Positions 9,685-47,140 of a DNA stretch of 64,000 nucleotides are shown piece by piece; the stretch's first letter is position 1; each line of letters starts with the position of its first letter. Location of the stretch: assembly GCA_018674305.1 (NCBI GenBank), contig JABHAL010000004.1, positions 446-64,445 on the forward strand, in the 5' to 3' direction. A program made the translations under genes and the position numbers. The notes beneath the pieces were generated by a model, which worked only from the letters and a program-made list of their open reading frames with translations, was not told the DNA's origin and made no database searches. The stretch is from Candidatus Falkowbacteria bacterium. Its GTDB lineage: Bacteria; Patescibacteriota; Patescibacteriia; UBA11705; JABHMO01.

Positions 9685-11610
9685 TTATTCAACCAAAACA
9701 TCCTGTTCCAAAACCTCATCTGTAGATTTTACCAAGTCACTGATTAATTTAATCCACAACTTTTCTTCCACCGTGCTTAAATTTTCTTTACTTGTCATTA
9801 CTCTATAAATATCGGATTTAGCATTACCCTGAATAATTAAATCCTGATTTTTGAAGTAAATTTTACCCAAGCACTTATTTAGGATTGGTGAATTGTACTG
9901 TTTTGTGAATAGACTGGTGCCCCAAAAATTTTCTCGTGGTACATAATCAGACTGTTCAATCAAATTTAAAATAGTTGGAGAAATATCCATGTGACTGGCT
10001 TGCGTAACGATTTCCCCCTTGAACCCTTGCGGAAAAACAATGGTCATCGGAAGCTGATTATAAGAATCAAAAACTAGTTGTTCATTACTACCATCAAAAC
10101 TATAATATCTATGATCACTATAAATAACCACAATTGTATTTTTATCTAACCCTTTATTTTTCAAGCTGATCATCAAATTTTCCAAAGCGTCGTCAGAAGA
10201 TTTCAGGAAACCAAAGAATAAACGCATTTGCTCTTCATTTATTTCCGAACTGTTAACCAACCAAGGATTAATTTTTCCGACAAAAGGTTTTATTTCTAAA
10301 TTATTGGCATCTAATTGATAGTCAATTTGTTCCTGGTCATGAGGAGCATGAGAAGTAAAACTCAAAACATATCCGAAGAATGGTTTTGATTCTTTATTTA
10401 ATTCAGTCAAAGCTCGCTGAAAAACTTGGTCATCATTTAACTTTTGCCTTAAATCAGGCGCAAAATATGTATTATCAAAGCCCCACCGAGGAATCAAAGT
10501 TTCACGATCCCAAAATTCCGGTACATTAGAATGAAAAAAATGGGTTGAATAATTGTAATCATCCTTCAAAATTTCTGGCAAACAGTTAAATTTATTTTCT
10601 TTATGAGAATAACCAATTGGCTCAAATGAATTTGGCCAAAAACTACACAAAGAAGCAAACTCAGCGTTTATGGTTTCACAACTATTTGCATGAAAATCGC
10701 CAATCGTAACATTGTTCTGCATTAATTTTTTGAGATATGGCATTGGTGACGGATCATTATCAACAGCCCAACTGCCGACCGACTCCAACTGTACAACTAA
10801 AATATTTGGACGCTCCTTGAACTTCGGTAAATATAATTGGCTCTCTGTCTCTGGGTTGAATTTTTTAATCTCCAACCAACTATCCTCAGCAACTTGCAAT
10901 GCTGTGCGATCATCATCCTGATTGTCATCTTTGTTTTTGGCATTCGCATAAAGCTGAGAATAAAAATGACCCAAAAACCCCACATCTGAAAGTTGTTTTT
11001 TTATATCCCACCAGGTTTCTCTAGGATTATTATATAAATATGAACAAGTGCTAAAAGCCACTGTGTTAATAATCGCAAAAACAACAATCAAAAACACCAA
11101 ATTACGCATTGGGCGTTTTTTATAATGAAAAATTAGTTTTAATGGCTGTGAATTAAAAAGTAAGTGCTCAACCTTTTTATCTATAATAAGTAAATATACT
11201 ATTGAGTTTAATATTGCTGCCAAATATACTACTATTGCTAAAACATACAATTTAACTGGCACCAAGCTAGCAAAATCTTGCAAAAAAGTAATCATACTTA
11301 AGTCCAGCTGAGAAGCCTGGCGCATACTAAAATCTACAAAAGATTTAAATACTCCGAAATATGCAAAGTTAAACAATGAAACTAAATATACTGCTCCCAA
11401 AAATAATAAGCTGAGCGCCCTCCACCAACGAAAACGTAAAAAATTAAACATCAAAAAATAACTCAAAGTAGCGATCGAAACAAAAAATAAATGCAACCAG
11501 GTGAAACTAAAATCTAATAATGAAAAGTAAATAAAAAAGTATATTACATTAAAAAAAAGTAATATGAAGTAAAAAATTACTGCTATTATTAACCTCCTTT
11601 GATTAAGCAT
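9685..11610 (-). CDS. LTA synthase / sulfatase-like membrane protein
   Basis: Several N-terminal TM helices; VQLES, TINAEF, TSHAP, YSDH motifs. Confidence 0.85.
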   Translation of the reverse strand: MLNQRRLIIAVIFYFILLFFNVIYFFIYFSLLDFSFTWLHLFFVSIATLSYFLMFNFLRFRWWRALSLLFLGAVYLVSLFNFAYFGVFKSFVDFSMRQASQLDLSMITFLQDFASLVPVKLYVLAIVVYLAAILNSIVYLLIIDKKVEHLLFNSQPLKLIFHYKKRPMRNLVFLIVVFAIINTVAFSTCSYLYNNPRETWWDIKKQLSDVGFLGHFYSQLYANAKNKDDNQDDDRTALQVAEDSWLEIKKFNPETESQLYLPKFKERPNILVVQLESVGSWAVDNDPSPMPYLKKLMQNNVTIGDFHANSCETINAEFASLCSFWPNSFEPIGYSHKENKFNCLPEILKDDYNYSTHFFHSNVPEFWDRETLIPRWGFDNTYFAPDLRQKLNDDQVFQRALTELNKESKPFFGYVLSFTSHAPHDQEQIDYQLDANNLEIKPFVGKINPWLVNSSEINEEQMRLFFGFLKSSDDALENLMISLKNKGLDKNTIVVIYSDHRYYSFDGSNEQLVFDSYNQLPMTIVFPQGFKGEIVTQASHMDISPTILNLIEQSDYVPRENFWGTSLFTKQYNSPILNKCLGKIYFKNQDLIIQGNAKSDIYRVMTSKENLSTVEEKLWIKLISDLVKSTDEVLEQDVLVE

Positions 11611-25251: not shown

Positions 25252-25283
25252 AAAAAAGAGCCTTACAGTGTAGTAAGACTCTT
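25252..25283 (-). terminator. Intrinsic terminator closing the 25.3-28.4 kb unit
   Basis: Minus strand aagagtcttac-tacact-gtaaggctctttttt. Confidence 0.75.
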
Positions 25284-25290
25284 GGTGCGG

Positions 25291-25845
25291 CTAAAAGTGG
25301 CCGCAGTATCCGTCCCAGTTGTCGACTGGGTATTGACTTTCGTCTAAGTTCCACTCACCTGTGTCCTCATCTTCCCAACCTTCACCGCAAGCGTAGCGGT
25401 AGGCCTGTCCTTCCTTCATCCCGAAGTAGAACTGGTGTGAGGCGTTGCGGCCCACCTGGTAAAACATTACCCCTTCCCGCTCCATTGAATACGGTTCAAG
25501 GCTGTCTTCAAACTCCAGATGCATGCGGATCATGGACTCAGCTCTTTCGTCGCCACCGTGCAACTTCTCAGCAAAGTCCTTAGCTGTGGCGTCACGCTTC
25601 GCGTCAACAATCTGATCATCAGCATACATTGCTTTCATCTGATCAATAATTGCCTGGTCTGTGACCAGCTCACGATCACCGAAGCTATTCTTGCGAAAAA
25701 ACACCATGCCGAAAAACGAACCTTCCGAGGTGACCATCTCGTGCTCAACCTGCCAGCCTTCTCCGATCTTGAACCCCTGGGTCTCCAGCGACTGACCATC
25801 GATCTCCACACCGGACCAAAAACTCACGTTCTTCTGCTGATTCAT
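25291..25845 (-). CDS. Hypothetical acidic protein (184 aa)
   Basis: GGAGG RBS, ATG at 25845; more GC-rich than flanking genes. Confidence 0.7.
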   Translation of the reverse strand: MNQQKNVSFWSGVEIDGQSLETQGFKIGEGWQVEHEMVTSEGSFFGMVFFRKNSFGDRELVTDQAIIDQMKAMYADDQIVDAKRDATAKDFAEKLHGGDERAESMIRMHLEFEDSLEPYSMEREGVMFYQVGRNASHQFYFGMKEGQAYRYACGEGWEDEDTGEWNLDESQYPVDNWDGYCGHF

Positions 25846-25952
25846 GGTGAACCTCCAATGTATTATTAAATTTATTCTCTTCAAAAGTCAATCTTGCAAT
25901 TGACTGCTCAAGAGAGTCACCGTTGTCTGACAACGGATCATCTTTGCGTGAG

Positions 25953-26129
25953 TCACCTCTTTTTGACCCTTCCCATTCTGGGCATCCCCCCAGTGGGTTG
26001 CGAACGCATTGCCCGCTCGAACAGGTACTGCTCACGGGTTACGCTTCCACGCTCCCGACCACCAGCAGTAAACCCATTCTGACGAAGAAAACTCGTCGCC
26101 TCAGCCACCAGATTCCGCGCGTTCCGCAT
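25953..26129 (-). CDS. 58-aa ORF MRNARNLVAEATSFLRQNGFTAGGRERGSVTREQYLFERAMRSQPTGGMPRMGRVKKR
   Basis: AAGGAGATAG RBS immediately after repeat A; not in the ORF track. Confidence 0.65.
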   Translation of the reverse strand: MRNARNLVAEATSFLRQNGFTAGGRERGSVTREQYLFERAMRSQPTGGMPRMGRVKKR

Positions 26130-26149
26130 TGGCTATCTCCTTTTGTTAA

Positions 26150-26218
26150 GCCATCAGAAAAATTAATTTTCATTAATTGCTCTGATGAATGCACAAGTAA
26201 ATGTTACTTATGCACAAG
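26150..26218 (-). repeat. Double-hairpin repeat, copy A
   Basis: Minus strand TGCATAAGTAA..TTACTTGTGCA + TCATCAGAGCAATTAA..TTAATTTTTCTGATGGC. Confidence 0.8.
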
Positions 26219-26811
26219 AAACGCAATGACAAGGGTTATCCACTTTACCGAGACATTTTCCCCATAATAGTATGACTTAACAACAATGGCTCACTAAAAG
26301 TCCATTGTCCCCTGTCTGAAAGGTTTGTCGCTAAGACTTTACCTTCCTTTTTAAAGAACCCTTTATAACCATAGAACGTGTATGGCTGGTTCTTTTCGTA
26401 ATGGTGCTTGCGTACACCTACGATCGTCCTAATGAACTCAACACTACCTTTTACTAGTGCTGTCTCACCCCATAGCCGGTTGAGCAATATGCTCCCGGCC
26501 TGCCCCTGAGCAACCCTTACACAATTTTTACTGCAAGTTATTGGTCATGTCGACTTAACAAATTACTTACACACTATTTTTTCGCAGTGAACTAGAATCT
26601 CAAATCTATGGCCCTTATCCCATAGACCCTCTAGCTCTGAAGAATAATATTTTCCAACGCTCCTAAGAGTCTGTTAGAAAAATTACTCTTCTCTTCAGGC
26701 TCCCCAGAAAACAACCATTGTCATGTGTTAGACAATAATCGTTTGTGAGTTCTGCCCTCGGTACTGGCTGCTGCGAACAACCTATCCCAGTGGTTTTAGA
26801 CTTTTCGCAAA
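26219..26811 (-). ncRNA. Putative structured ncRNA segment 2 (~590 nt, unknown family)
   Basis: No convincing ORF; chain of stems (26354-26393, 26476-26498, 26605-26626, 26717-26736); bounded by repeats B and A. Confidence 0.5.
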
Positions 26812-26876
26812 GTCATCACAATAATCAATAAACATAATTACTCTAATGAGCACGCAAACACCTGCTACATGCGCTC
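26812..26876 (-). repeat. Double-hairpin repeat, copy B
   Basis: Minus strand GCGCA..TGCGTGC + TCATTAGAGTAATTA..TTGATTATTGTGATGAC. Confidence 0.75.
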
Positions 26877-26881
26877 GCTAA

Positions 26882-27064
26882 CTATTTACTTGCACTTGGA
26901 GCCTTACACTCCTTACAACCTAGGCAAGGCGGGCGCCCAAACGGGTATTTTGGACAGTCTACCCGAACAGCAACCTCTCTCAAATACCTCTCATGCTCGT
27001 CTTCAATACTGAAAGGCTCGTCGGTCTCAAAATCCCAACCACTAATCATTTCGCCTTTTCTCAT
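26882..27064 (-). CDS. 60-aa ORF with Cys-rich C-terminus (MRKGEM...CLGCKECKAPSASK)
   Basis: AAGGAGATAG RBS immediately after repeat C; HERYLREVAVR motif. Confidence 0.7.
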   Translation of the reverse strand: MRKGEMISGWDFETDEPFSIEDEHERYLREVAVRVDCPKYPFGRPPCLGCKECKAPSASK

Positions 27065-27083
27065 CACTATCTCCTTTATTAGA

Positions 27084-27150
27084 GTCATCAAAATAATCAA
27101 TTTTTATTAATTACTCTGATGATTGCACAAGCTCTAGGAGCTTGTGCAAG
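27084..27150 (-). repeat. Double-hairpin repeat, copy C
   Basis: Minus strand TTGCACAAGCTC..GAGCTTGTGCAA + TCATCAGAGTAATTAA..TTGATTATTTTGATGAC. Confidence 0.8.
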
Positions 27151-27835
27151 TAGGGAGATGACTGTAGGTGGACAATCATCAGTGCGACACTCACTCCCGA
27201 TCAAGAGAGTCTCCACCACCGCTGCTTAACGGCTGTCGCTTTGACCACACATCCTGGATTCTTGGCCACCCGCCTTGACCGCCCGAAGGCGAGGCAGGAG
27301 GCCTCCATCCAAGTTTCAAGTTAAGGGAGTGTGCGCCCCCTATAGCCTCAGTCAGTTTCTTGCATCTCCGCCCGGCCAAAGGCTTTGACACATGCGAGGG
27401 GTTGGCCTCGCTTCCGCTTTACATCGTATAAGACCCTTCCCCTGGGCCAAACACGCATTGCGGCATGGCCCGACACTGACTGATTTGCTCTACCTTTACC
27501 TTTAACATAGAATTTTATGTTAAATTCCCTGTGCTGGTAGCAGAGCGGGTCCCCTCCCGTAAGCTTGCGACTCACGACAGACAACCACCAACTTTACCGA
27601 CTCCACCTTATTGGCGTAAGGCAAGCCACTAACTTCCTTTGCTCCGACCAAGAGCTTGGACCACATCTTCTCAAGGTGACTCCCCCTGTCATTAGGGGCC
27701 CTGTTCACGATAACTCCGAAGAGCTTCTCGCTAGAAAATGTGGTGGAGATTTGGATAACAGGCAAGCCTGATACCCTGCCTTCCCCGGGATAGGGTAGAC
27801 ATATCGTTCCTTACGGAACTATCAGGCACTCCACA
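27151..27835 (-). ncRNA. Putative structured ncRNA segment 1 (~685 nt, GC-rich, unknown family)
   Basis: cUUCGg and GNRA-type loops in minus orientation (27281-90, 27559-75, 27712-25, 27806-19); long-range helices 27348-56/27475-83 and 27766-73/27820-27. Confidence 0.6.
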
Positions 27836-27903
27836 GCCATCGTAATAATCAAAGCTTTATTTAATTGCTACGATAGGTGCGCGAATATTTTTATTCACGC
27901 AAG
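27836..27903 (-). repeat. Double-hairpin repeat, copy D
   Basis: Minus strand TGCGTGAATA..TATTCGCGCA + TATCGTAGCAATTAAA..TTTGATTATTACGATGGC. Confidence 0.75.
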
Positions 27904-28369
27904 AGTTTATTTGCGCAGTGGTAAAATGCTTTCATTTACCTGTCTAGGTTCTCGCTAAGAGTAGCCTAGACTTTTTGTATTTTGTTCTACAAAACCTTTA
28001 CTTCCTCGTATCACCTCCAATGGACGTTATCGATCTTTGTTTGGTGAGGTCAGCCAAGGCTTCAACCTGGGAAAGCAGCTGCGCGCTACCAACCGGTGCA
28101 ATATAGAACATAAATTGATAATGACCACATCTCATCCCCCAAGCCCCGAAGAACTTTAGGAAATGAGTCTAGTCTCATTAAGTTTATCTCTAAATCCCTC
28201 TGTAATATGTTGCCAGATAAATAAATTTGAATTAATGGCATTTATATAAGCGAGGGATATATTTCCGGAAACAAGGGTTCAGTTGTTACACCTACATCCT
28301 TATTTCTAGAATACAAGCAAATTGCCTGTACTGGTCGAGAACAAAAAACTTTTTTTTACTCAACATAGA

Positions 28370-28398
28370 AGTATAGCATGCATTTTAAAACTTGTCAA
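28370..28398 (-). promoter_or_regulatory. Strong sigma70 promoter for the 25.3-28.4 kb unit
   Basis: TTGACA-17 nt-TATACT with extended -10 TG. Confidence 0.75.
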
Positions 28399-39190: not shown

Positions 39191-39514
39191 ATGCCAGCTA
39201 AAAAACGAAAAGCTGCTCCAAAGAAACGAAAGGCAGCTCCAAAAAAGCGAAAGGCAGCTCCAAAGAAACGAAAGGCTGCTCCAAAGAAGCGAAAAGCTGC
39301 TCCAAAGAAAAAGAAGAGAGTAGTTAAGAAGAAAAAAGCTGCTCCAAAGAAACGAAAGGCTGCTCCAAAGAAGCGAAAGGCTGCTCCAAAGAAAAAGAAG
39401 AGAGTAGTTAAAAAGAAAAAGGCAGCTCCAAAGAAACGAAAAGCTGCTCCAAAGAAACGAAAGGCAGCTCCAAAGAAACGAAAGGCAGCTCCAAAGAAAC
39501 GAAAGAGAAAATAA
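39191..39514 (+). CDS. Histone H1-like, Lys/Arg-rich repeat protein (KKRKAAP)n
   Basis: AGGAGG RBS; 21-nt repeats with synonymous variation; terminator at ~39524-39551. Confidence 0.85.
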   Translation: MPAKKRKAAPKKRKAAPKKRKAAPKKRKAAPKKRKAAPKKKKRVVKKKKAAPKKRKAAPKKRKAAPKKKKRVVKKKKAAPKKRKAAPKKRKAAPKKRKAAPKKRKRK

Positions 39515-43964: not shown

Positions 43965-44073
43965 TCCTGGCGACGACCTACTTTCCCACTGTGTAGTATC
44001 ATCGGCGCTACAGGGCTTAACTGCTGTGTTCGGGATGGGAACAGGTGTGGCCCCTGCGCTAGAGTCACCAGGA
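43965..44073 (-). rRNA. rrf: 5S rRNA
   Basis: CCTGGTG...CCCATCCCGAACAC...GGGAAAGTAGGTCGTCGCCAGG. Confidence 0.95.
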
Positions 44074-44156
44074 CTATGTCTCTGTTTAAATAGAATATTT
44101 GATTCAAGTATAATAATTACAATTTGTAATCCGAAAATGTGAATATTAACATTATA

Positions 44157-47140
<2,984 letters not shown>

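Follow-up and report, generated by a model that had tools for sequence, protein, structure and literature searches.

What do the recurrent hairpins in one ORF-poor stretch of a Patescibacteria genome mark, and what lies between them? In the window, by which we mean the whole 64,000-nucleotide stretch of DNA analysed, an initial annotation had described four repeats (A to D) as conserving structure rather than sequence and folding on the minus strand, and had taken them for a selected RNA structure, plausibly an RNase III-type site. The stretches between the repeats, which it overlooked, are the payload. The array occupies the second-largest ORF-poor gap of this small, CPR-like, 1.28-Mb genome, between ileS and a FAD oxidoreductase gene, where a predicted minus-strand transcript of ~3.1 kb is divided into units by twin hairpins. 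Its order is leader, D, unit 1, C, 60-aa ORF, B, unit 2, A, 58-aa ORF, E and 184-aa ORF, so that every unit downstream of the leader has a twin hairpin before it. The twin hairpins form the unit boundaries: each is flanked on one side by a stop codon or the end of an RNA, and on the opposite side by a ribosome-binding site or the beginning of an RNA. The features are, in the direction of transcription:

28370-28398, minus strand: sigma70-like promoter with 11/12 consensus matches and an extended -10, the predicted transcript start, called by consensus match alone
27905-28363, minus strand: leader, non-coding, partly structured, 72-75% alike in genome G002
27835-27902, minus strand: twin hairpin D (minus-strand folding, alignment), with predicted cuts before 27871 and after 27840
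27152-27839, minus strand: unit 1, a structured non-coding RNA of ~690 nt with full-length homologues in G003, G005 and G292
27205-27486, minus strand: conserved 3' core of unit 1 (alignment), with a 7-bp outer helix and a predicted pseudoknot
27271-27300, no strand: 30-nt palindromic repeat within the core, in this genome only, with a similar copy at C9:13595-13624
27083-27150, minus strand: twin hairpin C (folding, alignment), followed by a ribosome-binding site, with predicted cuts before 27117 and after 27088
26882-27064, minus strand: 60-aa ORF with a strong Shine-Dalgarno sequence and a cysteine-rich end, without a Pfam match
26811-26878, minus strand: twin hairpin B, with the weakest hairpin 1, 4 nt past the stop codon of the 60-aa ORF
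26218-26815, minus strand: unit 2, a strongly folding stretch of ~600 nt (folding, z -8.6)
26149-26216, minus strand: twin hairpin A (folding, alignment), followed by a ribosome-binding site, with predicted cuts before 26183 and after 26154
25953-26129, minus strand: basic 58-aa ORF, with ORFs 35-45% identical at the corresponding place of G003 and G002
25874-25937, minus strand: twin hairpin E, the fifth copy (covariance-model match), also in G002 and G003
25291-25845, minus strand: 184-aa ORF, the last unit, with homologues in G002 and G003 and no Pfam family above the cut-off
25256-25283, minus strand: intrinsic-terminator-like hairpin with U tract, the predicted transcript end

All four repeats first described are real, but copy E had been missed. 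On the minus strand, copies A to D are predicted to fold into a short hairpin 1 abutting an AU-rich hairpin 2 of 16-22 pairs, and the strand assignment agrees with minimum free energies that are lower on the minus strand in all four copies (minus/plus, in kcal/mol: A, -27.6/-20.5; B, -22.7/-6.4; C, -35.2/-28.3; D, -28.1/-20.5). The corresponding minus-strand z-scores are -4.9 (A), -2.3 (B), -9.9 (C) and -4.8 (D), which makes copy B the weakest. The sequences at A to D verified that the inner arms of hairpin 1 vary between copies and bore out the consensus proposed for hairpin 2, and the compensatory change noted in copy D corresponds to two adjacent two-sided changes relative to copy A. The description "structure rather than sequence" fits hairpin 1, which has 7-15 bp of free sequence, but not hairpin 2, which also keeps a core AG-Y-A-R-U-Y-R.

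In an alignment of 19 copies from 7 genomes or contigs, 89% of the hairpin 2 cells are paired. Hairpin 2 shows 62 two-sided changes versus 21.3±5.1 in shuffles (0/500 shuffles equal it; slid controls give 7-16); as the copies are related, these changes are not independent events, and the covariation proposed as a check nevertheless holds far above the controls. Two wobble pairs, a G-U and a U-G, lie five pairs apart and are conserved, the former at columns 47/71 in 16/18 copies and the latter at columns 52/66 in 13/19. Both would be mismatches if read on the opposite strand, in keeping with the earlier reading of several mismatches as minus-strand wobbles. Together, the covariation and the kept wobbles support selection for an RNA structure formed by the minus strand.

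The mark occurs elsewhere as well. A profile built from the four copies found no further strong match in the 1.28-Mb genome; a genome-wide search with a covariance model from the 19 copies recovered copy E together with three further ones, located on contigs C4 and C9. At E<=0.005, the hairpin model matched 7/15 family genomes and 1/10 other genomes of the order, and in genome G015, where the RNA core of unit 1 is present, it gave no match. A strict hairpin-2 pattern had no matches in the genome collection. A sequence-free twin-hairpin scan returned 124 matches versus 36 and 45 in shuffles and missed both B and the C9 copy, and is therefore too loose for counting copies; further candidates from it lie at C1:125244-125322, C9:134970-135039 and C16:150848-150908. 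In orphan-gene operons, single copies separate a stop codon from the next ribosome-binding site, at C9:26358-26425 and in G008, G013 and G014 (L041, L052, L058, L069, L070). Since the twin hairpin also occurs in these operons and in the reverse transcriptase (RT) array described below, it is punctuation rather than part of one RNA.

That the repeats might be ordinary terminators or REP-like selfish repeats without a processing role is suggested by stable hairpins past stop codons in a genome with many small palindromes. We consider this barely credible, as the copies have no U tract on either strand and are absent from the terminator matches, and as they are few, always at unit boundaries and, at a mean column identity of 51%, too diverged for a mobile repeat. 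With eight sense-strand model matches genome-wide at E<=0.005, the element is not the generic REP or terminator that the initial annotation had kept in mind.

The second array bounded by this mark lies on contig C4:

G000:C4:42296-46183 (L067:4296-8183), minus strand: retron-clade RT-RNase H, nine twin hairpins, eight units, MoxR-type AAA and vWA-like genes

Here, C4:42322-44630 forms the largest ORF-poor gap, with nine twin hairpins bounding eight folded units of ~210 nt each that have paired ends and follow one another with a period of 262-312 nt. Directly before the array lies a retron-clade RT of 517 aa that includes RNase H, and after it come the MoxR-type AAA and vWA-like genes, for neither of which PADLOC gave a match. 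The RT matches retron RT models (best RT_VI, E 4e-32), has WFDD as its catalytic word and contains what we take to be region X- and Y-like words. The same RT is found at E<=1e-30 in 6/400 class genomes, at loci with 1 to 8 units, each followed by a twin hairpin of little sequence likeness. Relatives of this RT are attributed to Patescibacteria in other sources. All 27 RT-array units counted, a set that leaves out those of G546, have paired 5' and 3' ends according to folding prediction (6-20 end pairs), together with a shared end motif, and many RT-array hairpin copies are near-identical repeats. In G003 and G328, extra units lie between the AAA and vWA genes.

A number of units that differs between loci, payloads that differ among genomes, a structure conserved more than its sequence and one strand that folds better than the other would also be expected if the repeats were single-stranded DNA recombination sites like integron attC and the units shuffled gene cassettes. 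This appears quite improbable to us: all copies are oriented with the transcript, no integrase was found among the 17 proteins scanned, which cover part of the ORFs of the window, and G002 lost unit 1 by an internal deletion that left both unit ends and both flanking twin hairpins in place. In addition, what we take to be the attC core boxes are not conserved at the ends of the twin-hairpin copies.

We then compared hairpin 2 with the substrate rules of E. coli RNase III. As set out in PMC1540722, the enzyme needs an 11-bp helix but accepts coaxially stacked helices, it has G at proximal-box 1 and prefers A-U or U-A at positions 2 and 4, it requires a U-G five pairs above proximal-box 1, and G-C at proximal-box 4 is a catalytic antideterminant. 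According to PMC5371410, real E. coli sites fit this consensus loosely, and a match is therefore weak evidence either way. With the conserved G-U set as proximal-box 1, columns 44-54 of the alignment make up the 11 positions up to the loop. Position 2 (column 46) is then A-U in 18/19 copies, position 4 (column 44) is A-U or U-A in 15/19, and the U-G at column 52 (13/19) falls at distal-box 2. Hairpin 2, with the abutting hairpin 1, is long enough for the enzyme, which calls for a helix extending 11 bp or more beyond the cut or for a helical stack amounting to about two turns.

Outside the training set, G-U occupies stem position 8-12 in 5/7 operon copies and 17/29 RT-array copies, compared to 56/226 controls, which are other long hairpins of the genome; the remaining 12/29 RT-array copies have none there by an automatic parse that left one further copy unparsed. 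RT-array copies also carry U-G at +5 in 10/17 cases (control 6/54), A-U at +7 in 17/17 (control 9/44) and A-U or U-A at proximal-box 2 in 16/17 (control 29/56). Other positions deviate from the E. coli rules: proximal-box 1 is G-U, not G-C; distal-box 1 is U-A in just 4/16 training and 7/17 RT-array copies; and, contrary to those rules, proximal-box 4 is occupied by G-C in copy D and in 3/5 operon copies. If D were cut as predicted, 27839 would be the first base, and the conservation of unit 1 across four genomes starts at 27838.

The RNase III gene (rnc) served as an independent control. It was found in 11/11 genomes searched, and a homologous AU-rich stem of 20-25 pairs is present in 7/11 of the rnc leaders and missing from the other 4. 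The hairpin-2 motif occurs at one place in 6/11 rnc leaders, in 5 of them within that stem. Genome-wide, 17/1185 occurrences of the motif lie in a long helix, with 8 of these 17 being array copies or the rnc leader, and permuted motifs give 2-10 of 753-986. The E. coli rnc gene is autoregulated through cleavage of its own leader (PMC5371410), and the stem found here is likely an autoregulatory leader, too. In this genome, a 24-pair AU-rich stem lies immediately upstream of the RNase III gene (C16:184448-184840), at about G000:C16 184890-184960 (L036). The stem flanking the 23S gene shows the motif only in part. The 23S-5S genes (window 43965-47140) are separated from the 16S gene (G000:C16, about 89484) and preceded by a promoter-like leader of their own, and a search up to 3.5 kb from the 16S gene start did not find the 16S 3' motif.

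The RNase III-type site considered plausible at the outset thus gains from the partial fit to the E. coli register and from the motif in the rnc leader. What has been observed is structure, position and conservation; from these we infer the enzyme, the cuts and a protective role of hairpin 1: the twin hairpins are probably RNase III processing marks, with hairpin 2 being cut and hairpin 1 stacking on it and protecting the upstream product. In this model, the two hairpins would stack to about 28 bp, and RNase III would read the upper 11 bp of hairpin 2 and cut 6-7 bp above its base. The upstream product would retain hairpin 1 as a 3' shield, while the downstream product would begin a few bases ahead of its first helix or Shine-Dalgarno sequence. 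The predicted products are, for the window, a structured RNA of ~690 nt, an RNA of ~600 nt and three small mRNAs, and, for C4:42296-44632, eight retron-like RNAs that would serve one reverse transcriptase.

Many copies (A, C, E, C9 and those in G008, G011 and G013) immediately precede a Shine-Dalgarno sequence, which would also suit a hairpin that is bound and not cut, either as a site for a dsRNA-binding protein (RNase III or another) or as a passive exonuclease roadblock, and that sets the translation and stability of each unit. The G-C at the antideterminant position in D and 3/5 operon copies points the same way, and a roadblock by itself would likewise yield discrete RNAs. We regard this explanation as unlikely, as the units after D, B and most RT-array copies are non-coding and have no ribosome-binding site, as a roadblock requires no wobbles kept at fixed spacing, and as the units need clean ends on both sides. 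Cutting by a nuclease other than RNase III that prefers stacked helices, in the way Cas6 acts in CRISPR arrays, would account for the partial mismatch with the E. coli rules and for the CRISPR-like order of repeat, unit and repeat at the RT locus. Such a nuclease is highly improbable, given that the two arrays and the plain operon copies have no neighbouring gene in common, that the motif recurs in the rnc leader and that RNase III is encoded in every genome searched.

The 688 nt of unit 1 between D and C fold with a z-score of -5.9; the unit is 78% alike in G003 and aligns over its full length with G005 and G292, and in the four sequences 65/147 predicted pairs show a two-sided change. A protein-coding gene or pseudogene is not supported, as the indels are mostly frame-breaking (8/10, 13/18 and 12/16 not being multiples of three). 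The conserved 3' core was found in nine copies, two each (tandem paralogues) in G011, L031 and L035. Its outer helix covaries at 7/7 pairs, and the core as a whole shows 40 two-sided changes versus 13.8±2.8 in shuffles, a contrast inflated by the choice of the structure on the same alignment. The predicted 4-pair pseudoknot is paired in 9/9 copies and hardly varies. The core model matches 6/15 family genomes, one of them weakly (G006) and unconfirmed on inspection, 0/10 other genomes of the order and 2/150 class genomes; of the latter two, the match in G292 is strong, and the spurious one in G049, inside a seryl-tRNA synthetase-like ORF, was dropped.

The 30-nt palindromic repeat sits in a variable stem of unit 1, and its copy at C9:13595-13624 lies within an ORF. 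In G002 (L022:9520-10180, 10245-10292), all that is left of unit 1 between two twin hairpins is its two ends, which are followed by a diverged core paralogue. At about 600-920 of L096 (G292), a 169-aa ORF that lies downstream of the unit-1 homologue is followed by another folded-looking, GC-rich stretch.

Scans against Rfam, run with gathering as well as relaxed thresholds, yielded nothing but rRNA, tRNA and chance matches and left unit 1 unmatched. Unit 1 had no blastn match in 50,697 phage records, and viral contigs gave no pattern match. It does not stand in for a missing housekeeping RNA either, as RNase P RNA (C16:313401-313778) and tmRNA (C4:5877-6266) lie elsewhere. In metatranscriptome assemblies, the 3/3 mismatch-free RNA contigs, from two studies, fall within 27235-27825 of unit 1, with no such contigs elsewhere in 3.7 kb; being contigs, they show neither RNA ends nor strand and may contain DNA. 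They are a weak hint that unit 1 is an abundant discrete RNA. No RNA contigs covered unit 2, the ORFs or the RT array, a non-coverage that carries no weight. In one of the runs, two further contigs match the C4 AAA gene exactly. Unit 1 is best read as an abundant structural RNA that would act on its own, comparable to GOLLD, ROOL or OLE, but our confidence in this is low.

Unit 2 has no homologue in the 15 family genomes, no blastn match in the 50,697 phage records and no match to unit 1 or GOLLD and is, therefore, a folding prediction from one genome. For the 58-aa ORF, a protein search returned no match but itself, and its alignment with the small ORFs of the G011 type is weak and may merge two families. 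TrmB-type regulator genes, Pfam-confirmed for two and assigned by likeness for the rest, often adjoin these arrays, mostly in divergent orientation (L022:11515-12309, L023:5032-5799, L031, L041, L052, L096). A histone-like 107-aa protein with lysine/alanine repeats is encoded at window positions 39191-39514.

Taken together, we tentatively propose, as a possibility somewhat short of even, that a single twin-hairpin RNase III mark serves this group of Patescibacteria as general punctuation for CRISPR-like arrays of large RNAs. These would comprise a new family of ornate ~690-nt RNAs, which has tandem paralogues and would be accompanied by a small basic partner protein, as well as a multiplexed retron upstream of a MoxR-vWA pair, in which one RT would serve up to eight different RNAs. 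In Patescibacteria, hardly any work exists on how RNA is processed or on large non-coding RNAs. A cut mark that can be recognised allows RNA ends to be predicted exactly and can guide searches; starting from four repeats, it pointed us to a covarying RNA of ~690 nt that is absent from Rfam and to a retron-like array with several units that occurs naturally. A natural many-unit retron, if true, would bear on anti-phage sensing and multiplex genome editing. In the open literature, we found nothing on the unit-1 RNA, on GOLLD or ROOL in Patescibacteria or on RNase III hairpins in Patescibacteria, nor a multi-unit retron array or a retron-MoxR-vWA layout, although survey tables and subscription papers may list these RTs. 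PMC9241854 and PMC9569102 yielded nothing on the unit-1 RNA.

RNase III sites that divide long transcripts are already known, and what the mark delimits may be the newer part. The early transcript of phage T7 is processed at RNase III sites. In this respect, the T7 early RNA (R1.1) and the E. coli rnc leader, in which hairpin sites likewise divide a long transcript, are close counterparts, and their 11-bp upper helix, distal-box U-G and protective 3' hairpin, as described in PMC1540722 and PMC5371410, have observed or predicted parallels here. Unlike those sites, the mark is a fixed twin-hairpin module with G-U in place of G-C at proximal-box 1, is found on a bacterial chromosome and divides arrays of non-coding RNA as well as operons.

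Unit 1 itself resembles GOLLD (RF02032), ROOL (RF03087) and OLE in its size class of 600-800 nt, its many helices and its predicted pseudoknot, and it shares with GOLLD a conserved 3' part and a variable 5' part (as reported for GOLLD in PMC12286853) and a tRNA gene near the unit-1 loci of some relatives. Unlike GOLLD, it occupies a chromosomal slot beside ileS, occurs in tandem paralogues and is bounded by twin hairpins. Kinship with GOLLD was rejected, as a search with RF02032 at E<=10 left the locus unmatched in all 5 genomes and the consensus motifs are absent. RF02032 matched 0/151 genomes of the phylum, with the control phage Rey positive at 182.5 bits, and unit 1 profiles gave no match to Rey. 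ROOL (RF03087) matched 0/5 genomes in a search in which no positive control responded and did not appear in the Rfam scans.

With retrons, the C4 array shares a retron-clade RT and units whose predicted paired ends are a1/a2-like. It differs from them in having up to eight different units per RT, located downstream of the RT, in the RNase H fused to the RT in some cases and in the MoxR-type AAA and vWA genes that follow. MoxR-vWA systems with diversity-generating RTs are described in PMC7159879, with a layout different from that of C4. Finally, both arrays recall CRISPR and TIGR arrays (the latter as presented in PMC12045711) in the order of repeat, unit and repeat and in the predicted processing to single RNAs. 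No Cas or Tas protein was detected among the proteins scanned and, unlike in CRISPR and TIGR arrays, the units are not short guides but folded RNAs of 200-690 nt or genes.
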